DNA from: Thermoplasmata archaeon
GTDB lineage: Archaea > Thermoplasmatota > Thermoplasmata > Lutacidiplasmatales > UBA184
Assembly (NCBI GenBank): GCA_021796385.1
Contig: JAJYXQ010000023.1
Location: 16,807 to 80,806 of the forward strand
Direction of reading: 5' to 3'
Length of the DNA stretch: 64,000 nt
The notes below the pieces were generated by a model. That model saw only the letters and a program-made list of their open reading frames with translations. It had not been told where the DNA came from and ran no database searches. Below are positions 3,427 to 53,475 of the stretch, piece after piece. A program made the position numbers and the translations under genes. Position 1 is the stretch's first letter; each line of letters begins with the position of its first letter.

Positions 3427-3479
3427 GTCACTTGAGAACGTTCGCAAAGCGATAAGTGCCCTGAGAAGTCACTCCCCCC

Positions 3480-5549: not shown

Positions 5550-5550
5550 G

Positions 5551-8448: not shown

Positions 8449-8629
8449 CTATCAAGGTCTGTAGATACAATTCCTTGGGAATTTGACCTATGCCGAAGGT
8501 TGCATTCTTCAGCCATGTTTTCCAGGTGGCTCTTGACGATGCTTTCGCCTCGAGCTCGATTAACCAGCGAAGTTATTTACCCAAGTCCATCTCGAACGAG
8601 AGTTTCTCAGCCCGAGGGAGCGATGGTCT

Positions 8630-18300: not shown

Positions 18301-18598
18301 GTCAACCAACTTCCGTGCTGGGGGCCAGGTGGGAAGTGTGACCATTCATGTGACCGTGACATTGGATCAAGCCAATGTGACCGCCTCCACGCAGGTTTCA
18401 ATCACAGCTCCTCAGTCGACTTTCGTTGGCTTGCCTAGTTATTATGGCTACACTATGATCGGAGTGGTGGTGGCGGCAGCAGTTACGGCGGTGGTAGTGC
18501 TGCTGGCACGGAAAAGGAAGGGTACCCCGGGATACAGAATCCACCAAGACTCGAAGAACATTACGGATGGGGCGGCGATGCCGGTGGCGGTGGAATAG
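15332..18598 (+). CDS. large cell-surface protein with YVTN/NHL-type beta-propeller repeats and C-terminal TM anchor
   Basis: Signal peptide MLNGVIAIFIFSLFVISPADA. Repeated (L/F)(Y/F)VAN..sn.v(t/s)vI units. Very many NxS/T sequons. C-terminal TMIGVVVAAAVTAVVVLLARKRKG. Confidence 0.8.
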   Translation: MRRGLIRRFRREKMLNGVIAIFIFSLFVISPADAGTYSSFPLATQLGHADSGKLSSLKPPLPTVPVQTRYPDSEKKGNHTSLSRSAPGAAEVKDTLDLWNNTLVQGNYVPKSGLQLSSVVDDGPVHAIFIADSASDNVVEINTTTHLAEKYIEVGGDPTALALDSSNGEIFVANGWTNNLTVINASLGEVVGSIPVGIAPVSLAFDPLSGLVYVANLGCLATPIYPCAGVGNATNISVVNPTVDSVIDWIPVPCFYPSLNFDSANELLYVTSENGNRTQIIDTITESELGWINTTKSSGAAALDSQIGTLFVASVSSALQVINLSKGIVVMNFTSGLNGPMAITLDEATQTLFVLNSNGTIVSLSTNGSEEGMVHLGGIESLSFDPIQGVIDALTFTNVDYLAPTVLTLIGSTTVGTGASILTGSGPGPPITTPDSVLLDAQGGLILVANYYAGNISLISEKTHREIADVPPSTSRQNPIALTLDPLNGLVYALYYDGCCVAGTLAAINPNNGTVVTSIAVGLQPTDVVYDPINNVLYVVNSGNRDLSIIDPQSNMVLRSIATWEIPEQDAVDPTNGYLYVSEWGCENSLYCPGMLQVLDPSTEQFVERIPIGERPEGIAFDPWDSEVFVAESYSNDLMIISSTNGTLIGSIPVGSSPYGICFDPLNGFLYVTDSDMYTYPIVGISPVADQGPDNLTEVNGMSNTVTGEISVGASPLAVTWGSSNDTLLVANSVSGTLSFVNPGIIPSPLLNITLSPRSAVIGLGGNVSLNASVVCQPLACPEGVNYTWNMTTYLVGTLIQNHGSTASFHANDSTGRVNVTVNVSIGKYSLGSQPATISITSLTSVGITPDLSRVAPGQSVTLVPHLLCEPVTCPSAAVNLTWIERGVNGSIRNLPNGSVLLVAGAVPGAINITLVVLMGTFTMSARGQVVIVTLLRAFISPNLVTLTPHQSFTLRLQLECSSDPCLGGETYSWSLSDPSLGTLSALHNASTNFRAGGQVGSVTIHVTVTLDQANVTASTQVSITAPQSTFVGLPSYYGYTMIGVVVAAAVTAVVVLLARKRKGTPGYRIHQDSKNITDGAAMPVAVE

Positions 18599-18750
18599 CG
18601 CAGGCTTGGAGTCATCCGTACTTGGACACCGGAGAGATTCTCGGGGAGAACCCTGTAGTTGTCGCACACCAGTCGCAGGCCCGACTCCGTCGCTTTCAGT
18701 TGGGTTGCCGGTTCAACCGCTCCAGCACCATCTCGCAGGCCGAGGGGATA

Positions 18751-18768
18751 CAACGCGGGTTATACATC
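18751..18768 (+). promoter_or_regulatory. shared 18-mer CAACGCGGGTTATACATC, copy 2 (about 90 bp upstream of 18855 gene)
   Basis: Exact match to 14921-14938. Confidence 0.35.
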
Positions 18769-18854
18769 GTTGGCGTTTGCCAATGTGAGGTGGGCAAAAT
18801 CGAAACGGCGGATAGCGAGAGGGACCGACCGATCTTGGAAGGGGGATTGATCCC

Positions 18855-21272: not shown

Positions 21273-21387
21273 GGGCTCGTTAGGGACTATGGCGACCAAC
21301 CGACTTCAGGATGATGGGGCAGCCCGACCCCTCTTCTAAAAAGTGAGACAGCGGACTTTCGCGCCTTTTGTGAGCCCTCCACCCATC

Positions 21388-21425
21388 GATAGATGGCCTT
21401 TCACTGGATTCCTTGGGCAAACTAT
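21388..21425. repeat. about 35-bp repeat TTTCACTGGATTCCTTGGGCAAACTAT (second copy at 22796-22833)
   Basis: Near-identical stretch in two intergenic/5' regions 1.4 kb apart. Confidence 0.4.
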
Positions 21426-21619
21426 CCATAAGTCCGTCGGGCGTTCCCACGTCGGCACGCCGAGGGAAGTGTAGGATGGGCAACTGTTCACGGTGTCGCA
21501 TGCTAAACCTGCCAACTGCCCCTCGCCGGAGCCAGTAATATGCGTGGTTCCCCCACCCTGATTTACGAATGAAATGCACACGCAATCCTGTGCAAGGCCG
21601 CAAAGGGTAAGTCGGTGCA

Positions 21620-22438
21620 GTGGTACTGAAGGTCGACATGGCAGAATTCGACCTCGTCGCCCCGATGTATGACGAGACGCGGCTTCCACCCACCCAGAAG
21701 CAGCTTGAGGCGGTGGCAAGGGCCCTGGGGGACGCGCGCAGGGTACTCGAGGGCGGCGTGGGAACCGGGCGGTATGCCCTCCCCCTTCTTCAGCGGGGAT
21801 TTCGCCTGACGGGGATCGATCTCTCGCTCCCGATGATGCATCGGGCCCGCGCCAAGGGATTAGACTCCCTGGTGCGGGGAGACCTCTACCACCTCCCGTT
21901 CCGGGATCGCTACTTCGAGGCCACGCTCATCGTCCACGTGCTGCAACTCCTCCCCGACCCCTTTCCCGTCCTTCGGGAGTTGGCCCGGGTGGCGGACTGC
22001 AGGGTGGTCACCTACCTGCCCGACCACCGGGGGGTGGGTCGTGCAATCCGTAGGGAGGTCCGGACGCGGTACATCGAACTCGCGCGTGAGATGGGGTATA
22101 CGGTGGAGGTGAAGACCCGGTACTGGGAGAACGGGAACAAGATCCTCGAACGGTTCCCCCCCGAAGAGATCTTCGAGCTTGAGGAGGAGCACACACCCGA
22201 CCCCGAGGCGGCCAAGCGATGGCGGGACCTCCGGTACTTCTGGGGTCTTGTGACGGTTCCCCCGGAGGTCCACGAGAAGATCGTGGAGCGGCTGCGCGCG
22301 GAGATACCCCGCCCTGAGAAGCCTTGGGAACCCCGGGTGCGCCACTCCCGGGTGGCCGCTTGGGACGCCCGAAAGCTCTACGATGCGATTGCCCGCTCTC
22401 TTGACCAGACCGGGGCCAGCTCAGCGGGAACGGTCTAG
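21620..22438 (+). CDS. class I SAM-dependent methyltransferase
   Basis: Motif I VLEGGVGTGRYALPL. Post-I acidic D in GIDLS. Motif II DLYHLPF. Confidence 0.75.
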   Translation: MVLKVDMAEFDLVAPMYDETRLPPTQKQLEAVARALGDARRVLEGGVGTGRYALPLLQRGFRLTGIDLSLPMMHRARAKGLDSLVRGDLYHLPFRDRYFEATLIVHVLQLLPDPFPVLRELARVADCRVVTYLPDHRGVGRAIRREVRTRYIELAREMGYTVEVKTRYWENGNKILERFPPEEIFELEEEHTPDPEAAKRWRDLRYFWGLVTVPPEVHEKIVERLRAEIPRPEKPWEPRVRHSRVAAWDARKLYDAIARSLDQTGASSAGTV

Positions 22439-22791
22439 GGCCGAGGTCAGCTCGGAGATCGTGGTCCGGTGCGATGCCCGGACATCGTACTTGTGGATCG
22501 ACTCCTCGCTCTCCGTTTCCGCAAGCACCTCGGTCAAAGGGGGGATGTCCTTGAAGCGTTCTGCGGCGAGGATCAGCACCGAGCGGACCACGTCCTCTAC
22601 GAACTTCGGCTTGCGGTGGGCATTGAGAACGAGGCGTCCCTCCCCCCTCGCTTCAGGATGGCATACGTGGGAGAGCCCTGGGCGTTGCCGATGACGTCGA
22701 GAATGTCCTCGACCCTGTCGTCCTCCCCCACGGTGAGAGACAGCTGCGTGCGGTTCCGCTGATTGTGGGTGATGATCGGAAGCTTGGCCAT
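22421..22791 (-). pseudogene. hypothetical protein interrupted by a frameshift at a G6 homopolymer (frames MAKLPIITHNQ... then ...RLVLNAHRKPKFVEDVV...)
   Basis: Two overlapping ORFs in different frames. Inserting one G in the run AAGCGAGGGGGGAGGGAC fuses them into one 124-aa ORF. Confidence 0.4.
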
Positions 22792-22842
22792 CGAGTCCTT
22801 TCACTGGATTCCCTGGGCGAACTATTCATCGTCCTTTGGGTG

Positions 22843-23040
22843 TCACTTCCTCTGCCTCTTCGCCTGAAGCCCCAGGCGGAGGAGATAGTGCACACGGTCG
22901 CTGAACGGCCGGATTTCCTCCTCGACCTGCGCGCGGATCTCCCGCTCCAGTTCCTCGGGCAGGTAGACGGTCACCTTGACCTTGCCTTGGCTCGGTTGCC
23001 CTAGGTGGCCCCGGGTCATGGGGGAAATCATGAGGCTCAA
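22843..23040 (-). CDS. ribbon-helix-helix (CopG/Arc-like) protein, copy 2 (likely true start at about 23019, MTRGHLGQ)
   Basis: QGKVKVTVYLPEELEREIRAQVEEEIRPFSDRVHYLLRLGLQAKRQRK. About 88% nt identity to copy 1, including the upstream region. Confidence 0.7.
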   Translation of the reverse strand: MSLMISPMTRGHLGQPSQGKVKVTVYLPEELEREIRAQVEEEIRPFSDRVHYLLRLGLQAKRQRK

Positions 23041-23306
23041 ACATAGAAACGGTTCTAATGGATTATTGATGTTGTATAACTGCAGCTATACGTCTTACAG
23101 AATAGAAAAGGCCTTGGAAGGCCGACTCTGGTCTCGTCCCGACCTTGATCTCTGCATGGGTCTTATCGGCGAGCCTTACGCTCTTTGCGGCCTCAACCTG
23201 GGGAAAGGCGCTCCCTGACATCAACCCCTTTTCAAGCAGCACTTACACACCTTCCATGGTCTGTCCTCTCGGCCACTTGAAATAGCGCGGCGGCATTGCA
23301 ATTACA

Positions 23307-25571
23307 GTGGTCGGGTTGAGGCGGGGCTGTTGGAATACCCGGATCCGCTTTGGACCCTGTGCCATCCTTGTCGTGGCCTTTCTCATGGTCCCCATTGTTC
23401 CGGGGATCCACTCGGCTTCGGAGCCGAGTGGTCTTACGGTCCCGAAGGCGAGCTTTTCTTCGCACCGAGCGGCGCCGCTCGCCGGGTCGCTACCGCACGG
23501 TATGGGCTCCGTGGCCTGGACCCTTTGTCTTTCTGATGGGATCCTATTGAACGGCACCCAAGGGTGCGCCGCCAACAACTTGAGCTCGGACGCCGGAGAC
23601 TGGGACCCGGCCGTGGGGGACCTCTACGTGGCGAACCGGGGCACTGCCAACGTTTCGATCGTGAACGTGGGGCAAGGGAGGGTCTTGGGCTCGATCAACG
23701 TCGGCAGCGGCCCGGACGCGGTCTTCCACGACTCCTCACGGAACCTCTTTGTGGGAAACTACGTTTCGAAGAACCTCTCCGTGATATTCACCGGGAACAA
23801 CTTGGCCGGTTCCTTCAACATCGGGACCGCCGTCTCCTCGGGTGTCTACGACCCCGATGACCAGCGGCTCTACTTCGTCGAACCCCTGAACAATACCGTC
23901 AAAGTGCTCGATGACATCCCACTTTACCTCGTGAAGAACGTCACGGTCGGCACGGCCCCGACCTCGATTGCCTTTGATGCTGCGGATGGGGACCTCTACG
24001 TAACGAACTCTGGCTCGAACAATGTCACGGTGGTCAACGGTACCCGCGACACCGTGCTCGCCAATATCCCGGTAGGGGTGAGACCGTCGGGGATTGCCTA
24101 CGACCCCGTCGCCAAGGAGCTTTTTGTCTCGAACCAAGGCAGCGACAACGTGACCATCATCAACGGCACCTCCTATGCCGTGGTCGGCAGCGTGGGGGTC
24201 GGGAGCCAGCCCGCGAGCCTTGCCTTCGACTCGTTCAACGGATTCGTCTACGTGGCCAATCAGAATTCGGGCAATCTGACCGTGATCAATGCGACGAGCC
24301 GAAGTGTCGTGGGTTCGATTCCCGTCGTAGGGGGTCCCTCCATGGGAGTTTCCGTGGACACGACCAATGGCTACGTCTGCGTGGAGAACTCGGGAGCCGG
24401 CTCGGTTGCGATCATTCCCACCGGGCGCCTTCCTCCCCATTATACCCTCTCCTTCTCCGAGACGGGCCTTCCCTCGGGTTTCACCTGGTCCGTATACGTA
24501 GGTGGCTACCGTTACACTTCGAGCCAGTCCCTGTTGAACGTGAGCGTAACGAATGGCACCTACTCGTATGTGGTGGGAACCCTCGGGAGATATGCCGTCT
24601 CCCCCACCGCCGGTAATGTCACGGTCCGGGGAGCTGCCGTGACTTCAGTGTCCCTCATCTTCTATCCGATCAGCACGAACAAGACGGTCTCCTTCCACGA
24701 GACGGGACTCCCCAGTGGCACGGGTTTCGGAGTGACGCTCAACCAGACCTTCATGAACGGATTCAGGTACATCAATTTCTCCATGGCGAATGGCACCTAC
24801 CCGTACTCCGTGCAAGATGACGTCGGGTACACGGAGACCCCGGCCTCCGGGAACGTTACCGTCAGTGGCGCCAATGTTATGGTGACGGTCACGTTCATCC
24901 CGCTTCCTCCGGGCGTCTATTCGGTGCAGTTCCAGGAAACCGGCTTACCTACGGGACACAGTTGGACGGTCCTGCTGGGATCTACCTCGTTGACCTCGAC
25001 GTCGAGCTCGATCACTTTTTCATCCCCGAATGGAACGGAGAATTACACCATCCCGAACACGGGCGCCTTCACCCCGGCAAAGGCCAAGGGTCAGGTCACG
25101 GTCAACGGCAACGGGATGCAGGTGTTCGTATACTTCTCCCCACTGCCACGACTGACCCATTTTAACGTGACATTCACGGAGTCGGGGCTCGCCAACGGGG
25201 TTTGGTGGTACGTGAACCTCACATACTCCAGTGGAGGGGAACGGAACACCACGACCAACCCCACCATCGTCATGTACCTCACCAACGGGACGTACAATTT
25301 CACGACGGGTACGTTGAACAAAAGCCAGTACCGGGTGAGCCCCAGTACCGGGCACCTCACCGTGAACGGCTCCTCGCTCACGGAGAGCATCCGGTTCACC
25401 TCCAACGCATCCGGCTCATCGAATCCGGGCCTTGGCGGCACATCGGGCAACGCTCTCGAGGTGATCGCCATCGTCATAGGGGTCGTGGCCGCGGCGTTGG
25501 TGGTCATCGTCGTCCTTTTCCTGCGCCAGAGGAAGCAACCCCCGAAGACCCAGACCCCGGGACCGACGTAG
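23307..25571 (+). CDS. cell-surface protein with YVTN/NHL beta-propeller repeats, Ig-like beta-sandwich region and C-terminal TM anchor (paralog)
   Basis: Signal peptide CAILVVAFLMVPIVPGIHSA. LYVANRGTANVSIVN / LYVTNSGSNNVTVVN repeats. C-terminal VIAIVIGVVAAALVVIVVLFLRQRKQ. Confidence 0.8.
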   Translation: MVGLRRGCWNTRIRFGPCAILVVAFLMVPIVPGIHSASEPSGLTVPKASFSSHRAAPLAGSLPHGMGSVAWTLCLSDGILLNGTQGCAANNLSSDAGDWDPAVGDLYVANRGTANVSIVNVGQGRVLGSINVGSGPDAVFHDSSRNLFVGNYVSKNLSVIFTGNNLAGSFNIGTAVSSGVYDPDDQRLYFVEPLNNTVKVLDDIPLYLVKNVTVGTAPTSIAFDAADGDLYVTNSGSNNVTVVNGTRDTVLANIPVGVRPSGIAYDPVAKELFVSNQGSDNVTIINGTSYAVVGSVGVGSQPASLAFDSFNGFVYVANQNSGNLTVINATSRSVVGSIPVVGGPSMGVSVDTTNGYVCVENSGAGSVAIIPTGRLPPHYTLSFSETGLPSGFTWSVYVGGYRYTSSQSLLNVSVTNGTYSYVVGTLGRYAVSPTAGNVTVRGAAVTSVSLIFYPISTNKTVSFHETGLPSGTGFGVTLNQTFMNGFRYINFSMANGTYPYSVQDDVGYTETPASGNVTVSGANVMVTVTFIPLPPGVYSVQFQETGLPTGHSWTVLLGSTSLTSTSSSITFSSPNGTENYTIPNTGAFTPAKAKGQVTVNGNGMQVFVYFSPLPRLTHFNVTFTESGLANGVWWYVNLTYSSGGERNTTTNPTIVMYLTNGTYNFTTGTLNKSQYRVSPSTGHLTVNGSSLTESIRFTSNASGSSNPGLGGTSGNALEVIAIVIGVVAAALVVIVVLFLRQRKQPPKTQTPGPT

Positions 25572-26297
25572 CGGGACATCGACGCGCCTTCCTTGTACTC
25601 TCAGTTGCGCCTAGTTGCCCTCACCCCATTCGAAGCGCATGATTGGTGGGAGTCCTGTGGTTCGGTTAAGACTCAAGGGCTTGAGGAAGGACAACGTAGG
25701 TGTCCCTCGTATGCTTCCATGGACCTCCTCCAAGCTTACTCGTAAAGGTCTCGGGTTTCGTCCTGAGCCGACCTTGAGGTGGGAAAACTCGACCAGTGGG
25801 GTGCAACCCGTAGCCCCCACCCCTCTCGTCGTGCCATTCGGGGTGCAGGAAATGGATGTCTTGGTCCTCCCTGTGGAAATGTTTGTCCAAGTAGAGGGCA
25901 TGTAGGTCTCAGCAACCCCCGCGCAAGGAGTCGCCGCACAGCCGTAAAAGGTCAAGTGACCCGAGAGACCTGCGAGCGCGCAAGTCACGGTAGGCCGATA
26001 GGGCGGGCAGCCGTCGCCGCCCCGAAAGCCCCAACTTTCAGACTGCGAGCGCTCAAAGGGGTCGCCGAGAAGCTCCTCCCAACCCACCCTCTGTGAATCC
26101 TAAGCGATTCAAACCTTCGCTCCTCCTGAAGAATTGGAGCGAGCACACCTGCATCCTCAGACCTTCCCCGCAGACTAAAGCGATGGTGCAAACGAAACAC
26201 ATTCCTCGCCGAGGATCTCAAGACCGACAAGCTTGCGGAACAACGTCAGAGTGAGCTTGGTCCCGGGAGCGATGGGCCCCCGGTGGTTTGGCCAGGA

Positions 26298-27344
26298 CTA
26301 TTCGAGGTGGTCCGAAGGGCCTAGGGAGAGCCGAGTGGCGAGGTTGATTCCCTCCCGCCTCCATACGTAGACCAAGAGCAATAGGAAGACGATCGCGAAC
26401 GGCACCGAGAGACCGTCCCCGATCAGGGTCCCGAAGACGGCATCCCAGAGCAGAAACGCCGCCCCCATACCCATAGCGAAGGCTGTCTGATGGAGCCGGT
26501 TCTCTTTCCAGCCGGCCCGGGTGAGGAGGAAGTACAACACGAGCCCACTGCTGAGGATGTAGAAGGCGCCCAACACCTCCCAGTAGGCCACGGAGTGGGA
26601 TCCGATGATGTATACGAACAGGAGCGAGAAGAGCCAGCAGAATGCCACAAGGAAGAACTGGCGAGGGGGTGCCGACGGCCGAGGTGTTCGCATCACCGAG
26701 GTGAACCCATCCATGGGGATCTTCCAGGCAAGGAGGATCAGGCCAAGTCCCAACGCGGCAATGAAGAGTAGGGCCGGGAGGAAGGCCATGATGCCATCGG
26801 GGTCCGACTTCAGGAACTGCAAGCCGATGTCGACAGTGAAGCATGCTGCGACGACCGGAGTCCCTCGGGAACCTAGGAGTGGCTTTCCCTTATACACAGG
26901 GAAGAGCAGCGCCACGACCAGCAGTTGGAGGCCGATACTGACCGCGGCATGGAAGATGTCGATGGGAATGAAGGTCGCCCACTCAATCCCCAGGGCGCGT
27001 CCGTACCCCCCCGGGATCTGGGTGATCCGGAACTGGGCGCCCGGGTCCACGAACGTCTTGGTCGCAAACCCTTCCTCGGCGATCCCGTATGCGGCACCCA
27101 GGGGCAGCACGGAGAGCCAGCCCTTCCCCCAACGAGCGGCGGCCTCCCAGACAAGGAGGGCGCCGCACCCGTACATGCCCAAGAGCGTCACGAACCCAAC
27201 GGCGCCGCGTGGGCTCAGCAATTCCGGGACCGGTGTCGAGAGCGAGAGGACCTCGGGGAAAGCCGCCGCGAAGACCAGCAAGACCAGCACGGGGACCCAT
27301 CGAGGGTGACCTGGAGAAACCATCGAGGTCGAGGGACGGTTCAT
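26298..27344 (-). CDS. polytopic integral membrane protein, function unknown
   Basis: 348 aa with about 9 hydrophobic helices. Convincing high-GC third-position codon usage. Confidence 0.6.
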   Translation of the reverse strand: MNRPSTSMVSPGHPRWVPVLVLLVFAAAFPEVLSLSTPVPELLSPRGAVGFVTLLGMYGCGALLVWEAAARWGKGWLSVLPLGAAYGIAEEGFATKTFVDPGAQFRITQIPGGYGRALGIEWATFIPIDIFHAAVSIGLQLLVVALLFPVYKGKPLLGSRGTPVVAACFTVDIGLQFLKSDPDGIMAFLPALLFIAALGLGLILLAWKIPMDGFTSVMRTPRPSAPPRQFFLVAFCWLFSLLFVYIIGSHSVAYWEVLGAFYILSSGLVLYFLLTRAGWKENRLHQTAFAMGMGAAFLLWDAVFGTLIGDGLSVPFAIVFLLLLVYVWRREGINLATRLSLGPSDHLE

Positions 27345-27634: not shown

Positions 27635-30316
27635 CTATGCTGTGAAGCCCGACGGGAAGGCCAGCACCGTACCCCCCGCCGTCACCAAGACGTATCCACT
27701 GTCGGTGGGAGAAGCCCAGAGGGCCACAACGTCCGTGCTACCGCCGGCGCCGTAGAACTTGGTGCTGAAAGCGAACACCCCAGCATCCTGTGCGGCCAGT
27801 GTGTAGCCAACGTTGTTGGGACCGGCGGCCATCCCGATGACGTAGTGTCCCGCCTTCAGGCTGATGTGCAGCCCAGGCACGGACCCGTAGTAGTGGGCGT
27901 CCCCGAAGGTGAAGATCCCACCATCCTCCGCAACGAGCCAGTACCCATGGCCGTCCGAGGTTGCCGCCATCCCGACGATGGGCATGTTCAAGTGGTGGCC
28001 TCCCATCGATCCGTAGAAGTGGGCGTCCCCGAAGGCGAAGATCCCACCGTCCGCGGCAACAAGCCAGTATCCCCTGCCGTCGGGTGTCGAAGTTATGCCC
28101 ACGATCGGGGCGTTCAGGCGTTGGCCGCCCATGCTCCCGTAGAACTCGACGGCCCCGAAGCTGAACACGCCTCCGTCCGCCCCCACCATCCAGTAGCCGG
28201 TCCCGGTCGGGTTCGCGGCCATCCCAACGATCGGCGCGTTGAGGTACTTCCCGCCCATGGATCCATAATACTTGGCCCCGGCCTCGGTGAAGATCCCGCC
28301 ATCCGTCCCGACCATCCAGTAGCCGGGTCCCGCCCCATCCCGCGCGGTTCCCGAGATGCACCCATTGATCTTTGGGTTCTCTGGGCAACCGATCTTCAGG
28401 AGGTTCAGGGTGAGGGTTCCAATCAAGGAACTCACCAGGACCTTGCTCGAGGCTGAGGGGTACCACAGGGAGAGCCCACCCATTACTGTCCAACTCCCGA
28501 AGACGTATCCGACCCCCTTGGGGAGGACCGGGGTCACGGAGAGGATGGTGTTGTCGGGATAGGCTATGACCTGGCCGTTAGCCACGGCTCGGCCGTTCAC
28601 CTCGATACCGACGGTGGGGATCGCGGGAGAGACCTTGAAGGTCGTTCCGCTCGGGGTCGGGTCCGAGCTCTTGATGTGGAGCACGTAGTAGACCCCTCCG
28701 AACCCGTTGATGGCGTCGATGGCAGGCTGGTCCCAAGCGGAGGCCGTATGCGAGGCCAGGAGCGCCGTGGTCGGGGAGAAGGTCCCATCAGCGGCGGTGG
28801 TCCCGACGATGATCTCGATGTGATCCCCATTGCCAAAGACCAGCATATCCCCCAGCTGGACCTGCGCCCAGTTGGTCCCCTCGTTCACACCATCATCCTT
28901 GTTCTCGAGCTGGGTCACAAGGTCGGGAACGTTCAGGACCCCGTAGATGTGCGAAGTGCCGGCAAAGTCGGACCCGAGGTAGAGTCCCCCGCCAGAGAAC
29001 CCGTCCCCAAAGTCGGTACCGATCGCTGCACTCACAAAGTGGGCACAGTCGACACCATGATTGAGCGCGGTTCCCGCCGGGTTCCCGAAGGAACTGAGCG
29101 GCTGGTCCGGGCCCCATTGGCACTCGTAGTTGTACCCGCCGTTGCTGGATTCCCATGCTTGGCTATCCCAGACGCACTGGGAGGCGCCTGCACCACTGAT
29201 CGCGTTCGGGGCCCCGTTGTTGTTGGCGCTGAAGGTCTCCGAGTCTGCGTAGAAGTAGCCATCCGGGACGACCTGGTTGTAGTAGTGTTGGGCGAAGGAT
29301 ACCACCGCGGCCCGGTTGTAGCTGATGCCCGTCCCACCCGCCGTGACCGCCGAAGGTGTCGTGCAACCGCCATTCGCTCCGACGGTTGCGGCGCTCTGGA
29401 CGGCGGCGACTGAGCCGAAGATCGAGGTCACCGCGCTCTCGATGTCAGAGGCGTAGGCGGCTTCCGTAGAACCGGGCCTGAACATCGCGAAGGTTCCACC
29501 GGACCAGGTTGCGATGTTACATGTGTTCTGAATAGACGAGCCATGCCATTGATTTTCGTAGATGGCCCCAAGGTTCTGCGAGATGTAATGGGTGAGCCCT
29601 ACCGGCCCCGTCGTGGCGGCCTGCAACGAATCTAAGGCCTGCGCTTCTGAGTCTGGATTCGTCCCGACTCCGCCAGGAGCCACATTGAAGTCCGTCATAT
29701 CGTACGCTCGATCCGAGGGGTTGTAGCACCGCCAACCATAGCCTGAGATGGACTCCGCCTCGACACCGTTGGGAGGAGCCCAGTAGTTGGATTGACTATA
29801 GCCCCCGGGCCCCCCAGGGGTGGAGCTCCACCAGTTGAAGCAGTTCTGCCCGCTGTTGACGTCCCCTGCACCGGGGCCCGGGAACTGCGCGTATTGACAC
29901 TGACTGCACTCAACCCCCTGCATCTGGGCGAAGATGTACTCCCAGGGGAATCCATACTCTTGCCCGATGGTCTCGGAACCTTGGATCACGATCCCGAGAA
30001 AAGCGTCATTGGTAAGGAAGCTGCTTCCGCTTGATCCCGAGAGCTCGTTCTGGAGGCAGGAGAAGAGCGCCGAGCTCATCGCGGGATTACAGCCACTGCT
30101 GGCAATGCTTGCGGAAGTTTTCGATGTGCCTCCGGACACGCTCATGTTGGATTGTTCGCCGAGTCCCCCCTCCAAGTGGGTGGAGGGGACTCCCGTCCCG
30201 AGGAGGAGACCCGCCGACACCACACCGGCGAGGGATGCCCCAAGCATGGCGAGGACTCCGAACAGGGCAAAGGAATAACCCCGTGCTTTCACGGGCACAC
30301 CTCCACTTCCACCCAA
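27635..30316 (-). CDS. secreted NlpC/P60-CHAP-like cysteine peptidase/amidase domain protein with six C-terminal tandem about 39-aa repeats (predicted beta-propeller)
   Basis: Signal peptide KARGYSFALFGVLAMLGASLAGVV. Cys motif GVDCAHFVSAAIG and His motif GDHIEIIVG. Repeats GYW(M/L)V..DGG(I/V)F.FGDA.(F/Y)YGS(M)GG x6. Confidence 0.75.
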   Translation of the reverse strand: MGGSGGVPVKARGYSFALFGVLAMLGASLAGVVSAGLLLGTGVPSTHLEGGLGEQSNMSVSGGTSKTSASIASSGCNPAMSSALFSCLQNELSGSSGSSFLTNDAFLGIVIQGSETIGQEYGFPWEYIFAQMQGVECSQCQYAQFPGPGAGDVNSGQNCFNWWSSTPGGPGGYSQSNYWAPPNGVEAESISGYGWRCYNPSDRAYDMTDFNVAPGGVGTNPDSEAQALDSLQAATTGPVGLTHYISQNLGAIYENQWHGSSIQNTCNIATWSGGTFAMFRPGSTEAAYASDIESAVTSIFGSVAAVQSAATVGANGGCTTPSAVTAGGTGISYNRAAVVSFAQHYYNQVVPDGYFYADSETFSANNNGAPNAISGAGASQCVWDSQAWESSNGGYNYECQWGPDQPLSSFGNPAGTALNHGVDCAHFVSAAIGTDFGDGFSGGGLYLGSDFAGTSHIYGVLNVPDLVTQLENKDDGVNEGTNWAQVQLGDMLVFGNGDHIEIIVGTTAADGTFSPTTALLASHTASAWDQPAIDAINGFGGVYYVLHIKSSDPTPSGTTFKVSPAIPTVGIEVNGRAVANGQVIAYPDNTILSVTPVLPKGVGYVFGSWTVMGGLSLWYPSASSKVLVSSLIGTLTLNLLKIGCPENPKINGCISGTARDGAGPGYWMVGTDGGIFTEAGAKYYGSMGGKYLNAPIVGMAANPTGTGYWMVGADGGVFSFGAVEFYGSMGGQRLNAPIVGITSTPDGRGYWLVAADGGIFAFGDAHFYGSMGGHHLNMPIVGMAATSDGHGYWLVAEDGGIFTFGDAHYYGSVPGLHISLKAGHYVIGMAAGPNNVGYTLAAQDAGVFAFSTKFYGAGGSTDVVALWASPTDSGYVLVTAGGTVLAFPSGFTA

Positions 30317-30534
30317 TTCCCCCCTGGGAGACAGGTGAGCACCATCACCGGAAGGTGAAGGGACATCCTCCGCTTGGCCATGGCGATCCTTTCGCTTATC
30401 TTCGAGCTCTTTGGGTGTGTCGGTTTCGCTGACATGCCGGTAGCATCCGGGGGCCTGCTATTTGAACCTCCGCGCTACATGTGACACTCTAGTGACCCCT
30501 GTGACGGTGCGGCGAGGGATCCTATCCCTTCGGT

Positions 30535-33507
30535 TCAGCGGCGGAGGTGCTCCTCGCCCATCTGGGTCAAGAGGTAGACTTTCAGTTTGCGGGGCGAACC
30601 CCGAACGAAACGAGTTCGTCCTGTGATCAGGCCGCGTTTTTCCAAGCGCCGGAGGGCCACGCTGAACTGGTTGCGAGGGATCCCAAGACCGGCCGCAATC
30701 CCCTTTTGGGTCAAGGACAAGGGGGCCATTTCATTGGCCCCCAGGGTGGAGCTCAGCCCCCCTTGCCCAAAGAGGTGATGCAAGATCCGTAGGGATACGG
30801 CCTGCTTGGCCCCTCCTTGTACCGAAGCCTCCGTTGGTCCTGGGGTGCGGGCTTCGGAAAGGACTGGCGCCAGACCGGGTTCGTATACCCCACAGCTCCG
30901 AAGGATCCTTTCCGCCATGGAACGTACGGCAGCCGCCCTTTCCGAGACCCCGAAAGAACGTTCCCAATCGGCGAGGGCCAACAGGGCCTCCCCCTCTCGG
31001 TACCTCATGCCTCTCTGGCGTGCCTCGGCCAGGGCCCGATCGAGCGCCATTCGCGCCTCGACGGAGCGGTTGAGAGCCATGAGCGCCTTCCCTTTGACCA
31101 CCAGCAACTCCGAAATCCCCCCTTGGGGGATATGCGGGGACTCGAGCGCCGTCAACTCTTCTACCGCGCGTTCGTGCTCCCCCATCATGGCCCGCGCCTG
31201 CGCCATGTCGAGGCGCAACCCCAACGCTTCTTCCGAAGTGCAGTGGCGTTCCACGATCGCCTTGGCCTTTTCGAAGCACTGCATCGCTAGGGTGGGCTGA
31301 CCTCGCCTCATCAGGACGGCTCCGAGGTACTGCATAGCCATGGCGGTCTCGCGGGGGAGACCGAAGGTCTCCGCTACGTGAAGGCCCTTCCGTGCGGCCA
31401 CTTCGGCCCCCGCCAGATCCCCGCGATGCATCTTGGCTCCGCTAAGGTTTGTGAGCGATATCGAGTGACCCCCTTGCTTACCTTGCCTACCGCTGGCTTC
31501 GGCTGCGGCCTCGTAGAGTGCCTCGGCTCGGGGGAGGTCCCCGCAGAGCGAACTCACGGCAGCCTCGAAGGAGAAGAGGATGAGCTCGAGCCCCCAATGA
31601 CGTCCCTCTTGGGCGGCACTCCGGGCGTCCGCAAGGTAGCGTCGGGCCTCTTCCCAATGACAGGAATCCATGGCGACCCATCCCAGGTCGTAGAGCGCCA
31701 GCCCACGATAGTACGTGTCCCCTGCGGGAAGCTGCGTGAGCGCTTCCGAAGCCTCCCTTACGGACTTTTCCACCGACCCTTCATAATAGGAGAGCTCGGA
31801 GGACCGAAGGAGTATCCGACCTTCGAGTTCAGGGGTGGCTCCCCCGAGGGTCTTGATCTCTGCCCGGACCAGCTCCAGCTCTTGCCGAGCCTCCTGCAAG
31901 GGTATAACGTTCGTCACGTCCCGTTGTACCTTGATGCTCCAAGACCAAGGGGGCGGGGGATTGAGGTCCAAGAGCTTGACGCTGACCTTGTGGATGAGCT
32001 TCCCATCAGCACCATCCCCCAACAACCTCTCCAGAATGGAGATCCCCCACCGAGCGATAGGCTCAGGTCCCCAGGATCGGCCGGTCAGGAATTCCAACCC
32101 GCGCTCGAACATACGGAACACTCTCTGGTGGGCGTGGTCGCGAAAGGCAAGAGTGATCGCCTCGTCCAGCCAGCGCATCGCCCGTTCCTCTTCTTGCCCG
32201 GCCGAGTAGAGCTGGAATATTCTCTCGGGGTCTGCCGGGTGATGTTGTTCCCACCATCGTGCCAAACGACGGGAAAGTTCGACCTTGGTCGCCTCCGGGG
32301 TGGCGTCCTTGACCGCCTCCCACATCAGGCTGTGCGGAAAGGCATACTCCTGACGTGTCTCTTCCTTCGGGATGATGATTCCCTTCTCTCGGCACAACCG
32401 TACCAATACCCTGTGGACAGGTTCCCTCCCGAGCTCGAGAACTGCCCGTAGAGGTTCTTCCTCGAATTCTTCCCCGACGATGGCAGCGGCCTGCAAAATT
32501 CGAGCTTCTTCAGGAGAGAGCAGGCTTAGCCTCCTTTGGAGAAGGTCGGAGACGGTCTGGGGAATCCCCAGATCCGTTTCGGATGGGTTCCCATGGGATC
32601 CTTCCGGGAGGACCATCTTTCCGGCGACCTGCCGAACTCCTCCGGAATCCTGCAGCTGATGGGCGGTCTCCACAAGGAAGTAGGGGTTCCCCCCCGTCCG
32701 CCGCAGCAGCGAAACGAGGGCACCCCTCACCTTTCCCGTATCGAAGGGAGCCTTCAGGACGCTTTCGAGGAGTTGCCTCGCTTCTTCCCTCTGTAACCCC
32801 GCCAGGGGGATCGTGCGCACCAGGTGTTCCCGTCGGATGTCTTGAAGCACACCCCGGAGAAGAGGGTTGTCCACTTCGTCCTCTCGGAATGCGACGACGA
32901 GGAGGGCGGGCAGACGAGGCATGTTTCGGCCAAGGAAGCGGAGCGCCTGCACCGAGTCCGGGTCAGCCCAATGGAAGTCGTCCAGGAGGATGACGAGGGG
33001 GGCCAACAACGCCTCCCGCTCCAATGTCCAGAGATATTCGAGGAGAAGGGAACCCCGGGAACGGGGTTCGGCTGCCCTTCGATTCGTACGACGCCCGCCC
33101 GGATCCCTAGGTGAGGGGCGGGACCCTTCCCTCCCTCTCCCGGAACCTGCCGAGGGTGGGTGTGGCCTTCGGGGCGGCTTCGCCTCCTCCGGTATCGACA
33201 AGGACGCTGTAGCTTCGGCCCCGGGGGAGTCCTTCGGTCCGGGGAAGACCTGTCTCAGCGGAAAGTAGCGGTCCTCGATCCCCGGTAGACAGTACCCCCA
33301 ACGGGCCTGGACCCGCTGTCGTCCCGCCTCTTCTTCCAACCACCGGAGAAGGGACGTCTTCCCGATCCCCGCGGGCCCGGTGATGAGCACGGTCGCCCCG
33401 CGGCCGCTCTTCGCCTGTTCCAAGCACGCTCTCAGGATCCCGGTCTCTGTACGGCGTCCCACGAAGTGGAATTCCGGGGAAGAGGCCGCGTCCGGGTCAA
33501 GCTTCAC
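30535..33507 (-). CDS. STAND-family P-loop NTPase with TPR repeats and C-terminal winged-helix DNA-binding domain (signal-transduction regulator)
   Basis: Walker A LITGPAGIGKTSLL. Walker B ILLDDFHWAD. Long TPR-like region. C-terminal wHTH LTQKGIAAGLGIPRNQFSVALRRLEKRGLI. Arg/Pro-rich low-complexity insert after the P-loop. Confidence 0.8.
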   Translation of the reverse strand: MKLDPDAASSPEFHFVGRRTETGILRACLEQAKSGRGATVLITGPAGIGKTSLLRWLEEEAGRQRVQARWGYCLPGIEDRYFPLRQVFPGPKDSPGAEATASLSIPEEAKPPRRPHPPSAGSGRGREGSRPSPRDPGGRRTNRRAAEPRSRGSLLLEYLWTLEREALLAPLVILLDDFHWADPDSVQALRFLGRNMPRLPALLVVAFREDEVDNPLLRGVLQDIRREHLVRTIPLAGLQREEARQLLESVLKAPFDTGKVRGALVSLLRRTGGNPYFLVETAHQLQDSGGVRQVAGKMVLPEGSHGNPSETDLGIPQTVSDLLQRRLSLLSPEEARILQAAAIVGEEFEEEPLRAVLELGREPVHRVLVRLCREKGIIIPKEETRQEYAFPHSLMWEAVKDATPEATKVELSRRLARWWEQHHPADPERIFQLYSAGQEEERAMRWLDEAITLAFRDHAHQRVFRMFERGLEFLTGRSWGPEPIARWGISILERLLGDGADGKLIHKVSVKLLDLNPPPPWSWSIKVQRDVTNVIPLQEARQELELVRAEIKTLGGATPELEGRILLRSSELSYYEGSVEKSVREASEALTQLPAGDTYYRGLALYDLGWVAMDSCHWEEARRYLADARSAAQEGRHWGLELILFSFEAAVSSLCGDLPRAEALYEAAAEASGRQGKQGGHSISLTNLSGAKMHRGDLAGAEVAARKGLHVAETFGLPRETAMAMQYLGAVLMRRGQPTLAMQCFEKAKAIVERHCTSEEALGLRLDMAQARAMMGEHERAVEELTALESPHIPQGGISELLVVKGKALMALNRSVEARMALDRALAEARQRGMRYREGEALLALADWERSFGVSERAAAVRSMAERILRSCGVYEPGLAPVLSEARTPGPTEASVQGGAKQAVSLRILHHLFGQGGLSSTLGANEMAPLSLTQKGIAAGLGIPRNQFSVALRRLEKRGLITGRTRFVRGSPRKLKVYLLTQMGEEHLRR

Positions 33508-34500
33508 GGGAGTTGGGGACCATCACCCGCGGGAAAGTGGGGCGCTGTCCGGCCCAAACCCGGAGAACATGGCCCCAGCAAGGCTGCGAGCGGATTCGGG
33601 CGACCTGGCGAACCCCCTCGAATAGACGGGGCGGCCATCGAACCAGAGGTCGGGCTCACAGCACGCGAGGGTGGGACTCCACCTCGTCGGCACCCGCGAC
33701 CCTCCCCCACGGAGACCTGGATATGGCCGTGCGTTTATCAACCCTGCTAGGCTTCGCAGGGTGACCAACGAACGCACCTCGGTGTCTTGTGCACGGGGGT
33801 CAACCCCTAGTGCGGCTCAGACAGAGTAACATGGATGGAGAAACACCGTGAGCGACCCGCTCGCGGACAAAGTCGTGTTCGCAGTAACGCGCGTGAACTG
33901 GGACAACTTGAGGCGCGCTGTGTCCTCCTCGTGCGGAGGTCAGCCGCTTTACCCGATGACGCTCAGAATACCCGGACGAACGGCTTGACGCTAGGGCACT
34001 CGAATCCCTTCGGACGGGGGGGGTGTTGCCCTAGGATGCCCCGTCACCTCGGAAGGGTCCCGCTCCCCACAGCAGCAAGGAAAGGCAGGTCATCGCTCGG
34101 GTCCGAGCCTTCCCAACGCGTCGGCAAATACTCATCTGAACGGTGAAAGAGGGGCGGACCGACCCTCTTTACAGCTGATCTAAAGGTCTTGCGATGGGAA
34201 GCTGTTAAGACGGCGACCATCTCCGAACATCGTCGTGAATACGGAGTTCGGTCGTGTTCCTGACCAAAGGGAGGCATGCTTCCCTTCGGATGAGCGTGGG
34301 ACCGGGAAGTCTCCCGATGCGCCGGAATACGTTATAAGTCAGTACCATGGGAGGTCGTTCAGGAGCCTCTCTCACCTCCCGGAGCCATCTGAAGTGAAAG
34401 CACCTTGGATTTCCACCGACCGCTCCGCGCGGTCTCTCCCAGAAGGGCTTGTGATCTACCTCCGCTCAAGGGCCAGGGACACTTCGGCCCGAGGGGGTTC

Positions 34501-39502: not shown

Positions 39503-41947
39503 TCACTGGGAGGGGGGCGGCATCGGTGGAGGGTACTCTGCTCCCGGTTCGGAGGCCGGAGCGGCCCCCTGCTCCGCGGCGGGGGGCGCTCCCCCTTCTG
39601 GCGCGGGTTGCTCCCAGGTTTGAACTCCCCCGGCGTTCGCCGGCTCGGGCTCGGACTTCCCGAAGCGCTTCTTGTGGGGCCGGACCATCCCGGGCTCGCG
39701 GGGATGCCGGCGCCGCCACAGGAGGAAGACGAGCAACGCGGCGACGATCAGGATGACGATCACGAGGATGTCGGAGACCGTGAACCCGCTGCCGGCGCCG
39801 ATCTCGTAGTTGAGCGCGGAGGGAGAGGGGTTCACGAGGAGCGCCACGTCGGTCCCGACCGTCTGACCACCGGTGGGGGTGGGGATCCCCGCATTGAACA
39901 CGACGAGGGAGATCCCGGTGCCGGTCGACGACGGCACCTGCAACGTGAAGGAGCCGCTCGTCGAGGTCTCCTGGATGACCGTCTCACCCTGTTGGGTGTT
40001 GAGGAAGCCCGCGCTTAAGGTGAAGAACTTGGGGGGAGTCGCCAGTCCGAGGGACGCCAACGTGTACGAGAACGTCACGCTCTCCCCGGGCTGGTAGCTC
40101 CCATCCGAGTATTGGGATGGGGTCGCGATGGACACCACGAGCGCATAGCCCGAGTACTCGTAGAGCTGGAGGTCCTGGCCTGCGATCACGCCGGTCGTGT
40201 TTTGGGCGATCACGGTGAGCGTGTAGGTGGGGAGGGTGCCCGAAGACGGGATGGTGAACTGGAAGCTGGTCGAAGTGCCCAAGGTCTGGTTGTAAATGAT
40301 CACCGTGTTCCCATTGGTGCCGGTCCCGGACACGCTGGCGAAGTAGGAGGCGGTGTTGAATACCTGCCCCTCCGGCGTGAAGCTCACATGGATGGTGTCC
40401 CCGGAGTGGTAGACGACCTCGCTCGGCTGCACGAGCAACTTGGGGGGGCTGACGAGCGTGCAGACGCTGCCGTAGACCGAGGCCGTGGCATTGTTCGCCT
40501 GGACTTCGATGGTCAGCACACCGCTGAAGGAGGTGGGGATCGCATAGCTCGGGACGTTCCCGGAAGTGCCGGAGAGCGGCCCCTCCGCCAGGAAGAGGTT
40601 GGTGACGCCACAGGCACCGGTCGTGGTGAGCGAACCGGCGTCCCCGAAGATGTAGTAGGCGTTCGCCGACCAACCGGACACGGGGTGCCCCGTGAACGAG
40701 GTGACCACGAAGCTCGCGGCCAGCGTGTCCCCGCCATAGTAACCCGCCGAGCCCACGGTCACCTGGACCTGAGCGGCCGGGGAGGCGGCGATGTTCACGA
40801 AGACCGTCTCGTGCATGGCCTGGACGGCGGCGTTGGATGGGTCGCTGATCGCGGCCGTGATGTTGAGGTCACCGGTGCCGAGGCCCGCGGTCTGCACCAC
40901 ACCCTGCGCCACGCCGGAACTGTTGGTGATCAAGGGGTACTTCGGGAAGCCCGGGGAAACCTGTTGGTTGTTGAGGTAGAAGGTGACGAGGACGGACCCG
41001 CCGACCCACGGTTCGGTTCCCGAGGGTCCGCTCACGCTCCCGTAGATGGTCAGGACGAAGTTCTGACCGGGCTGGATCTGGGCCGTGTTCGGGGCACAGG
41101 CGGAGCCGCCTCCCCCGATGGTGCTGCCCACACAGACGTTCGGGAGCTGCGGGGAGGATATCCAGAGGTTGGTCACGGAGCTGTTCTCACTGAAGAGCCC
41201 CGTGGGAAGGGTGGCATTCGCTTCGACCTGGACCGTCAGGGTGCTGTCCCCGATCGCATCCGGGGGGACCGTGAAGGGGATGGCCGTGGCGTTGGTCGCT
41301 GCCGGGTGGGAACTGATCGTGTTGACGGGCGTGCAGACGCCCGGGTTGGTCTGCTGGTCGTAGCACGTCGTAACGAAGAAGGTAAGCGAGGAAGTGGAGG
41401 TCTGGAGCCCGCCCGTGGTGGAGTTGTACACATTGATGTACAGCACGGCGCGGTCCCCGGGAAGGTGATAGGCCCGGTCGAAGGCCACCTGCACATCGTA
41501 CGGGGGTCCGTGGACGGCCAGCACCAGGTTGGAGGTGGTGGAGAGGCCGCTCGAATCCCGGGCCGTCACGGTCACCGGGTAGGACCCGGCCGTGGCGTAG
41601 TTGTGGGTGAAACTGAAGTTCGCCTGGTAGGAGAAGTTGTACTGGGTGTTCGTGGCCCCATCTCCCCACTGGATCGTGATGATGTTGATTAGGCATCCGG
41701 CACCCGCGCCGGCGATCGCCGTGCCGGAGACGGTGGCGAAGAATCCCCGGACGCTCTGGGATTGGATCGTCAAGGAGGGCGCGTTCGTGCAAGCATGGGG
41801 TGTGGAAGGCTGGATGGGGGCTCCCGAAACTCCCCCGAGGCTCGCGACCAGCCCCGAGAGCAACAACAATGCCGTGGCGTACACTACAGGCTTCCAGAAA
41901 GACCCCATGATTTTGAGATAACCGAGGGTGATATAAGGCTGATTCAT
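39503..41947 (-). CDS. large sequon-rich cell-surface glycoprotein (S-layer-like candidate) with C-terminal TM anchor and Pro/Ala-rich cytoplasmic tail
   Basis: Signal peptide MGSFWKPVVYATALLLLSGLVASLG. Multiple Ig-like beta-rich segments. C-terminal ILVIVILIVAALLVFLLWRRRHPREP. Confidence 0.7.
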   Translation of the reverse strand: MNQPYITLGYLKIMGSFWKPVVYATALLLLSGLVASLGGVSGAPIQPSTPHACTNAPSLTIQSQSVRGFFATVSGTAIAGAGAGCLINIITIQWGDGATNTQYNFSYQANFSFTHNYATAGSYPVTVTARDSSGLSTTSNLVLAVHGPPYDVQVAFDRAYHLPGDRAVLYINVYNSTTGGLQTSTSSLTFFVTTCYDQQTNPGVCTPVNTISSHPAATNATAIPFTVPPDAIGDSTLTVQVEANATLPTGLFSENSSVTNLWISSPQLPNVCVGSTIGGGGSACAPNTAQIQPGQNFVLTIYGSVSGPSGTEPWVGGSVLVTFYLNNQQVSPGFPKYPLITNSSGVAQGVVQTAGLGTGDLNITAAISDPSNAAVQAMHETVFVNIAASPAAQVQVTVGSAGYYGGDTLAASFVVTSFTGHPVSGWSANAYYIFGDAGSLTTTGACGVTNLFLAEGPLSGTSGNVPSYAIPTSFSGVLTIEVQANNATASVYGSVCTLVSPPKLLVQPSEVVYHSGDTIHVSFTPEGQVFNTASYFASVSGTGTNGNTVIIYNQTLGTSTSFQFTIPSSGTLPTYTLTVIAQNTTGVIAGQDLQLYEYSGYALVVSIATPSQYSDGSYQPGESVTFSYTLASLGLATPPKFFTLSAGFLNTQQGETVIQETSTSGSFTLQVPSSTGTGISLVVFNAGIPTPTGGQTVGTDVALLVNPSPSALNYEIGAGSGFTVSDILVIVILIVAALLVFLLWRRRHPREPGMVRPHKKRFGKSEPEPANAGGVQTWEQPAPEGGAPPAAEQGAAPASEPGAEYPPPMPPPSQ

Positions 41948-52984: not shown

Positions 52985-52995
52985 GGGGACCGGAC

Positions 52996-53475
52996 CTACG
53001 GGAATGCGTTCGCTTCCGGGGGAAGCCGCGCCTTCAGGAGGAAGCCGGCATGCATCATCAGGGAGAAGGCGATGCCCCGCACCACGAGCCCGCTCCCCAG
53101 AAGCCCGAGGCTCGAAAGCGTGAGGTCCATCTCGAGCGTCCCCGAGGAACTGCCGGAGGAGCCCCCCACCACCCCGTTGATGATCAGCGCAAGGTCGAGC
53201 GCGAGGAGCACGACGGCGATCCCGATGGCGAGCCATGCGATGCTGTAGAGGAACGCCCCCTGCTTGTGCCGACGGAGCGCGTTGGCCATCCACGGGTCCA
53301 GATCCTCTAACGACTGCGGCACCGGGACCGGGATGGGAGGGCCGAAGGCGGGGCCTGGCACATTCCCGGGCATCGAGGAGTATCCCTGATGGACCTGCTG
53401 GGGAGAGTACACGGCCCGAGGTGGGGGAGCCACGACACTTTGCGAAGGGTGGGAGCACATTAGCCTTTTGCCCAC
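52996..53475 (-). CDS. small Pro-rich membrane protein (weak call)
   Basis: Pro-rich N-terminus then two hydrophobic helices. Convergent with the upstream gene. Confidence 0.35.
   Translation of the reverse strand: MGKRLMCSHPSQSVVAPPPRAVYSPQQVHQGYSSMPGNVPGPAFGPPIPVPVPQSLEDLDPWMANALRRHKQGAFLYSIAWLAIGIAVVLLALDLALIINGVVGGSSGSSSGTLEMDLTLSSLGLLGSGLVVRGIAFSLMMHAGFLLKARLPPEANAFP

Follow-up and report, generated by a model that had tools for sequence, protein, structure and literature searches.

The 64,000-nucleotide stretch of DNA analysed here (the window) comes from contig JAJYXQ010000023.1 of a Thermoplasmata archaeon (assembly GCA_021796385.1) and carries, at positions 27635..30316 (-), an open reading frame (ORF) that is the coding sequence (CDS) of a multidomain protein of 893 amino acids (aa). 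Sequence comparisons indicate, with a probability of about 0.55, that this protein is an exported modular cell-wall hydrolase of the archaeon, aimed at bacterial peptidoglycan. In the proposed mechanism, an N-terminal hydrophobic segment would take the protein through the membrane by the Sec route, and the protein would then be released or tethered at the cell surface; a six-bladed propeller at the C-terminus would dock on a component of the bacterial wall; and an Amidase_6/NlpC-P60 domain would cut an amide bond in a peptide stem or cross-link, with Cys424 as the nucleophile, His499 as the general base and His523 as the third residue. The weakened wall would lead to the killing of neighbouring (actino)bacteria or to the release of nutrients from bacterial remains. 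An orphan domain in the N-terminal half of the protein would play an accessory role. The analysis establishes the identity of the domains, the conservation of the catalytic residues, the fold of the propeller, its partners in other proteins and the archaeal nature of the host, whereas export, substrate, biological role and control by the upstream STAND-type regulator are inferences.

The host has no bacterial-type wall, so the substrate would have to belong to other organisms. An earlier first-pass annotation of this DNA had offered pseudomurein or other envelope polymers, and bacterial cell walls, as possible targets; the evidence favours the bacterial wall, because the propeller partners peptidoglycan enzymes in bacteria and lysin domains in phage-like contigs. 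Assignment to the class of peptidoglycan hydrolases is likewise suggested by the closest solved relatives of the catalytic domain and by the partners of the propeller. The feature is real and well defined, and the first-pass reading of it is largely right, although its map of the protein missed both the orphan N-domain (residues 71-330) and a beta-sandwich (residues 558-640).

Catalytic core and repeat propeller

An exhaustive HMMER search of 1.84 billion cluster representatives, with residues 60-660 as the query, yielded only eight other proteins, and this region was split into domains on the basis of where the eight matches fall. The whole hydrolase matched nothing in Pfam or NCBIfam at E <= 1, nothing in PHROGs or PADLOC and, by phmmer, no PDB sequence, and a whole-protein word-index homologue search returned matches to the repeat region only. 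When residues 331-552 (28661..29326 (-)) were scanned alone, this catalytic domain matched Amidase_6 at E 1.6e-3, in an alignment that takes in positions 2-148 of the 163 in the profile. The motifs VDCAHFVS (residues 422-429) and GDHIEIIVG (residues 497-505) are present as they had been quoted from the sequence, and Cys424 (29045-29047 (-)), His499 (28820-28822 (-)) and His523 (28748-28750 (-)) are invariant in a five-sequence alignment (A1); a lack of conservation at the catalytic Cys and His, which the first-pass annotation had named as a result that would speak against its reading, is therefore not what is seen. The A1 profile matches about 25 solved NlpC/P60 peptidoglycan endopeptidases, among them CwlO, Spr/MepS and RipA, with E-values from 5.5e-4 to 0.1. 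The catalytic His residues of CwlO and Spr fall opposite the His motif in these alignments, and the DCSGFV of Spr falls opposite the Cys motif. The Amidase_6 match, the invariant Cys and His residues and the NlpC/P60 profile matches support assignment of the core to the papain-like Cys/His amidases in the NlpC/P60 superfamily (clan Peptidase_CA), as had been proposed earlier. Only half of the accompanying label, "NlpC/P60-CHAP-like", can be kept: CHAP (PF05257) matched neither the whole protein (E <= 1) nor the catalytic segment (E <= 10), and the nearest Pfam family is Amidase_6. A viral scan with the catalytic domain was empty.

Among papain-like enzymes, Amidase_6 has been grouped with the NlpC/P60-CHAP amidases (PMC10318531), and its members in B. 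subtilis are listed as uncharacterised candidate wall hydrolases (PMC10653849). With this family (PF12671; YhbB and YjcM in B. subtilis) the archaeal domain has in common a Y.R..AV.YA..Y helix, the DC.HFVS and GD...H motifs and a second His. It differs from the family in its sub-cutoff score, its archaeal host and its domain context, and in that its first helix and its nucleophile are separated by a Cys-containing insert of about 70 residues.

The catalytic domain is followed by a beta-sandwich spacer resembling the InlB B-repeat (residues 558-640; 28397..28645 (-)). This segment has no direct Pfam match of its own; it matches a repeated domain of another protein, P0011 (E 1.7e-6), and Pfam assigns that domain to Flg_new_2. 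Residues 665-893 (27638..28324 (-)) are made up of six 42-aa repeats of the form GYWxV...DGG.F.FG.A.FYGS, spaced at 42, 42, 42, 46 and 37 residues, which together constitute a putative wall-targeting module. The first three repeats are 60-64% identical to each other in protein sequence and 65-67% identical in DNA sequence, the fourth is 33-50% identical to the first three, and the fifth and sixth are degenerate; Tandem Repeats Finder reports a DNA period of 126 nt (score 312, 77% matches). The repeats had been described as six near-perfect copies with a period of about 39 aa. The count is right, whereas the period is 42 aa and identity among the first four repeats is only 33-64%.

An AlphaFold2 model of the repeat region, built from a 105-sequence alignment (predicted local distance difference test score, pLDDT, 92.5; predicted template modelling score, pTM, 0.90), has 18 strands, three per unit, and in this model the repeats form the six-bladed beta-propeller that had been predicted from the sequence, the agreement being at the level of the fold. 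Foldseek searches of the PDB and BFVD with the model returned generic WD40 or RCC1-type propellers only, and the repeat is found in no solved or curated family. The repeat region does not match NHL (PF01436), and its other Pfam matches are weak and spurious. Six-bladed NHL propellers (Brat, TRIM71 and the extracellular sensor of M. tuberculosis PknD; 1q7f, 9jur and 1rwi) are 10-12% identical to it, and identity is 7-12% overall when the Ralstonia fucose lectin RSL (4csd) is considered with the NHL set. DSSP assigns three strands per blade to the modelled propeller and its repeat motif is different from theirs, so that the likeness to NHL and RSL is one of fold only.

A profile of the six-repeat module matched at least 8000 proteins at E <= 1e-5, and this 42-aa GYWxV repeat family has no Pfam or NCBIfam model. 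The matches that carry a source name come from Acidimicrobiales, Acidimicrobiia, Actinoplanes, Mycobacterium and Saccharimonadales, mostly Actinomycetota, and the homologues looked at closely have six units too. Several family members have been named "ribosomal protein L24E" by the Joint Genome Institute (JGI), apparently because of weak, spurious matches to Ribosomal_L24e (PF01246). In a set of 104 homologues, the Pfam partners of the propeller include CHAP (13), CAP (9), YkuD (7), TIG (4), NlpC/P60 (3), Amidase_3, PG_binding_1 and subtilase (2 each), and M23, VanY, 3D and an Rpf-like transglycosylase (1 each). Peptidoglycan-active domains are, thus, its dominant recognisable partners. The module is also present on 29 IMG/VR contigs, with shorter runs of repeats placed after a GH25 muramidase or an Amidase_2 domain; this order corresponds to the standard endolysin layout, in which a wall-binding domain comes after a catalytic one. 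In the GenBank phage MK557849, repeats lie inside a CDS annotated as glycoside hydrolase family 25. Because its partners are peptidoglycan enzymes and phage lysin domains, the propeller would, by analogy, direct proteins to cell walls and would be used mainly by Actinomycetota and their phages. A literature search for beta-propellers linked to the wall-binding domains of actinobacterial lysins returned nothing relevant.

Two IMG/VR contigs encode longer proteins of ~1020-1040 aa (L093, 1714-4782; L097, 1666-4800), in which more than 10 copies of the repeat lie between conserved N- and C-terminal regions; these may be tail-associated wall-binding proteins.

The pairing of an amidase with this propeller is itself common in Actinomycetota. 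Four such proteins (P0046, a "CHAP domain-containing protein [Acidimicrobiales bacterium]", P0029, P0057 and P0104) come from Acidimicrobiia and other Actinomycetota and consist of a papain-fold wall amidase and, after it, the same type of six-unit propeller, with 50-60% identity to that of the archaeal protein. They differ from it in being two-domain proteins of about 400-480 aa with a standard CHAP or NlpC/P60 domain and bacterial hosts, and are presumably autolysins whose substrate is the wall of the producing cell itself. The only archaeal-context proteins found to carry the propeller are the protein studied here and its closest relative, P0009. The abundance of the module in bacteria, set against these two carriers, suggests horizontal transfer from bacteria of the propeller and perhaps of the entire lytic cassette.

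Export segment and orphan N-terminal domain

The only sustained run above 1.6 in the Kyte-Doolittle profile of the protein is at residues 14-44 (30185..30277 (-)); an isolated window at residue 626 also exceeds this value. A Lys and an Arg stand ahead of the hydrophobic segment, a twin-arginine motif is absent from it, and a possible cleavage site lies between VSA and G. The segment is compatible with Sec export, as a cleaved signal peptide of the Sec type or as a signal anchor. Translation of the hydrolase probably begins at the GTG at 30292 (residue 9 of the ORF), which would give a protein of 885 aa; this is the likelier start because a near-identical public gene call (P0001, with a single substitution, E724K) begins at that residue and because GGAGGTG stands ahead of it. 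A hairpin at 30280-30295 (-) (CCCGTG-AAAG-CACGGG) takes in this probable start; the number of such hairpins in the region is at chance level.

Between the hydrophobic segment and the catalytic domain lies a Cys-rich N-domain (residues 71-330; 29327..30106 (-)) with the motifs YGFPWEY.FAQM.G.EC..C.Y and QNCFNWWS, in which YGFPWE, G.EC..C.Y and NC.N.WS are invariant among its relatives. It is an orphan: among the 1.84 billion representatives, it occurs in only four proteins, namely the hydrolase, a fragment (P0007), P0008 and P0010. In P0008, it is directly N-terminal to a canonical NlpC/P60 domain (PF00877, 6.5e-12), so that two of the four proteins have it fused to papain-fold amidases. The P0010 gene lies two genes downstream of an STT3/AglB gene, a neighbour that is consistent with an archaeal host for P0010 without being proof of one. 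None of the four family members has a Pfam match in this domain at E <= 10, and the domain has no PDB, PHROG or viral match; a match of its profile to a polyketide synthase in the PDB (E 0.09) was judged spurious. A metagenome scan with the N-domain led only to the contig of P0008 again, and a word-index homologue search with the N-domain alignment found P0007 only. An AlphaFold2 model built from the four-sequence alignment (pLDDT 34.7) was unusable and was discarded.

The orphan domain, for which the fusion in P0008 is the single functional clue, is proposed to be an accessory part of the enzyme that would provide a further lytic activity or a further means of binding. A bolder version of this idea, in which the domain would have a hitherto unrecognised fold, perhaps confined to archaea, for degrading or binding walls and would be combined with the two bacterial modules in a bifunctional lytic weapon switched on by the neighbouring STAND-type regulator in response to bacterial signals, is a long shot. 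The orphan N-domain is the most novel element of the protein, and the propeller family without a Pfam model is the most broadly useful by-product of the analysis.

Host, target and known archaeal wall hydrolases

The first-pass annotation assumed an archaeal host, and the neighbouring genes bear this out. The adenylosuccinate synthetase encoded 8 kb from the hydrolase is 93% identical to that of one metagenome-assembled genome (MAG) and 75% and 71% identical to those of two Thermoplasmata archaeon MAGs. The order PKD protein, adenylosuccinate synthetase, tRNA-Val is common to the window and both named Thermoplasmata MAGs, and in the MAG with the 93%-identical synthetase the MMPL gene comes next, in the same order. 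The guanine-cytosine (GC) content is even, at 0.62-0.63, over positions 26-38 kb of the window. The known makers of pseudomurein are Methanobacteria and Methanopyri only (PMC12352652); the class of the host, Thermoplasmata, is not known to make murein or pseudomurein.

Several observations weigh against an exported enzyme that cuts bacterial walls. Domain associations are the sole source of the substrate assignment, and for characterised enzymes of the NlpC/P60 superfamily the range of substrates extends to amides and acyl groups outside the wall. The Amidase_6 score of the catalytic domain (19.0 bits) falls short of the gathering cutoff (23.2 bits), so that by the Pfam criterion the domain is a divergent relative of the family rather than a member; its closest relative, P0009 (48% identity), is likewise below the cutoff at 21.8 bits, whereas the more distant relatives P0012-14 exceed it, and P0012 and P0013 also exceed that of NLPC_P60. 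No significant match resulted when hhalign was used to compare the catalytic profile with one NlpC/P60 sequence. A partner domain cannot be recognised in about 60% of the listed homologues of the propeller, and the partners that can be recognised include CAP (9 of the 104 homologues), subtilases, sedolisins, GDSL lipases and Ig-type domains; fusions to CAP, peptidases and lipases limit the case for wall targeting, and the propeller could instead bind surfaces or glycans in general. The hydrophobic segment is long and could hold the protein in the membrane, and P0009 has a C-terminal anchor, a transmembrane helix followed by a basic tail; anchoring would fit a role at the archaeon's own surface.

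One rival reading is a general extracellular peptidase or amidase, not specific for walls, that scavenges nutrients from proteins, peptides or gamma-glutamyl polymers and is merely tethered by its propeller to particles or to a biofilm matrix. The same propeller is fused to sedolisins in P0002 and P0003, and to subtilase and CAP domains elsewhere, a secreted prolyl oligopeptidase gene is present in the window, and some members of the NlpC/P60 superfamily, such as poly-gamma-glutamate hydrolases, are amidases that do not act on walls. Such a role nonetheless seems unlikely, given that the closest solved relatives identified by profile are all peptidoglycan endopeptidases and that the other fusion partner of the N-domain is a canonical NlpC/P60 domain.

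It is still less likely that the enzyme is self-directed, that is, anchored by its N-terminus and engaged in processing the archaeon's own envelope, for example its surface glycoproteins or lipoglycan, or in cell-cell contact, with the propeller as a general binder. The hydrophobic segment, at about 27 residues, is long enough to serve as an anchor, P0009 ends with the kind of transmembrane helix and basic tail by which surface proteins of archaea are typically anchored, propeller and PKD surface proteins crowd the window, and the propeller also has non-wall partners. Conversely, we know of no self substrate with NlpC/P60-type amide bonds in Thermoplasmata, and the recognisable catalytic partners of the propeller are predominantly peptidoglycan enzymes and phage lysin domains. 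The gene is also rare even in related MAGs, with only two archaeal-context homologues found, which is ill-suited to a housekeeping role in the envelope, and the class is not among the pseudomurein producers (PMC12352652).

A hydrolase directed at bacterial walls, the reading preferred here, would have precedents. The killing of bacteria by archaeal secreted peptidoglycan hydrolases has been shown experimentally (Strock et al., PLoS Biol 2025; PMC12352652), and such secreted hydrolases are reported from about 5% of archaeal genomes, with Thermoplasmatota prominent among them (PMC12352652). Two enzymes of Halogranum salarium have been characterised, Woldo, a homologue of zoocin A, and Danwoldo, which combines a glucosaminidase with PG_binding_1; both have Tat signals (PMC12352652). 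Like the protein described here, they are archaeal, have an export signal and combine a wall-cleaving type of domain with a targeting domain (the signal and the targeting role being predicted ones in the present case), and they are built from bacterial-type components in a host without the substrate. The present protein differs from them in having a putative Sec-type rather than a Tat N-terminus, a divergent core of the Amidase_6 type, a propeller instead of a classical peptidoglycan-binding domain, an additional orphan domain and no Pfam match in a whole-protein scan.

This last difference matters for surveys, since the published set was defined by the presence of Pfam catalytic and Pfam peptidoglycan-binding domains (PMC12352652); a Pfam-based survey would miss the present protein, because it has no Pfam match when scanned whole. 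The first-pass statement that a hydrolase of this architecture is uncommon in archaea needs some qualification in view of the secreted hydrolases reported from about 5% of archaeal genomes (PMC12352652). Archaeal secreted wall hydrolases are already known, and the protein is a variant unseen by standard domain searches; what is unusual here is its architecture and its invisibility to Pfam screens. The weapons used by archaea against bacteria, particularly in Thermoplasmatota, may, thus, be undercounted. Defining the repeat family of at least 8000 proteins would improve the annotation of many wall enzymes and lysins, and the propeller could supply a new targeting domain for engineered lysins.

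The STAND regulator and the surrounding genes

The hydrolase gene lies downstream of a gene for a 990-aa STAND-type regulator (30535..33507 (-)). The two ORFs are co-oriented and adjacent, as the first-pass annotation stated, with a spacer of 218 bp between the stop codon of the STAND gene and the hydrolase ORF (30317..30534 (-)), or 242 bp up to the GTG start. The domain composition given at first pass for the STAND protein, an ATPase followed by TPR and a winged helix-turn-helix (wHTH) domain, with an Arg/Pro-rich insertion, is confirmed by Pfam, NCBIfam and motif analysis. The protein has an AAA_16 domain (32893-33465 (-); E 7e-24) with intact Walker A (GPAGIGKT, at residue 44) and Walker B (VILLDD, at residue 172) motifs, a TPR region (TPR_MalT and TPR_12; 30979-31794 (-)) and a C-terminal wHTH domain (HTH_Crp_2/MarR_2; 30538-30729 (-)). 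The 60-residue insert between Walker A and Walker B (STAND residues 94-153; 33049-33228 (-)) is 67% Arg, Pro, Gly and Ser. AAA_16 with Walker A and B motifs, MalT-like TPR and a DNA-binding domain are shared with MalT/LAL/AfsR-type regulators, from which the protein differs in its C-terminal winged helix, which is Crp/MarR/PadR-like rather than LuxR-type or SARP, and in its 60-residue Arg/Pro/Gly/Ser-rich insert. Against curated NCBIfam equivalogs, all of its scores are far below the cutoffs. A reading of the gene as an Avs-like defence component was rejected, given the absence of a PADLOC match and the presence of a C-terminal wHTH rather than an effector domain. An 897-bp gap (33508-34404), in which no family-matched ORF and no Rfam match were found, separates the STAND gene from the divergent MMPL gene.

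The STAND protein and the hydrolase could form one regulated unit, in which the TPR region would sense a ligand and the wHTH domain would switch on the hydrolase. The two genes adjoin on the same strand, and AAA_16, TPR and C-terminal wHTH make up the architecture of MalT/AfsR-type signal-sensing activators. The same gene arrangement is seen in an independent assembly, the 11.3-kb ENA contig that carries P0001 (L001); this contig is 99.5% identical to the window at the nucleotide level and, thus, comes from the same organism, so that its arrangement is not independent evidence. In L001, the gene call places a 48-aa ORF inside the 30317-30534 spacer. At the P0009 locus, near one end of a 98-kb contig, no STAND gene is present in the fetched sequence, which extends ~10 kb upstream and, as far as the end of the contig, 3.7 kb downstream; the genes found there encode a lysine exporter, a RecQ helicase, an amidohydrolase, a HAD hydrolase, an MFS transporter and PKD proteins. 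The missing STAND gene beside the only close homologue leaves the regulatory link unproven. Moreover, a spacer of 218-242 bp is long enough for a promoter of its own, no operator or shared motif was identified and no link to a defence system or phage was found. A scan for sigma-70 promoters and intrinsic terminators, the consensus of which is unsuited to archaea, found nothing above chance. A functional tie between the two genes is, thus, not supported, the pairing being seen in this organism only; a regulatory link is possible and, on this evidence, doubtful.

A gene for a 348-aa multi-pass membrane protein (26298..27344 (-)) lies on the same strand, 290 bp downstream of the hydrolase. The protein has no family match and is only possibly associated with the hydrolase. 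A homologue with 36% identity is encoded ~5 kb from the P0009 gene (L083, 3618-4715), which could reflect a weak functional link between membrane protein and hydrolase or just residual synteny. The 3' end of this ORF is overlapped by a 99-nt tRNA-Ser(cga) called by ARAGORN at 26265-26363 (+). This is probably a false call, because the Rfam tRNA model finds nothing there, even at E <= 1. A genomic island bounded by tRNAs was ruled out on the basis of the Rfam result and the uniform GC content over 26-38 kb, and the scanned ORFs between the two tRNA calls have no integrase-family match.

Elsewhere in the window, positions 187-9982 encode an IS66-family transposase, a type III restriction-modification pair (N6_N4_Mtase and ResIII) and a ParA-like ATPase, and the GC content is lower at 2-10 kb (0.51-0.55) than in the rest of the window (about 0.62); this region is probably a mobile or defence island. 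Large surface proteins with YVTN/NHL-propeller, Kelch and PKD domains are encoded in runs at 15332-25571 (+), 39503-41947 (-) and 50324-55612 (+), and N-x-S/T sequons are numerous in one of them (23307-25571), which also carries a transmembrane anchor at its C-terminus. The window is unusually rich in surface proteins.

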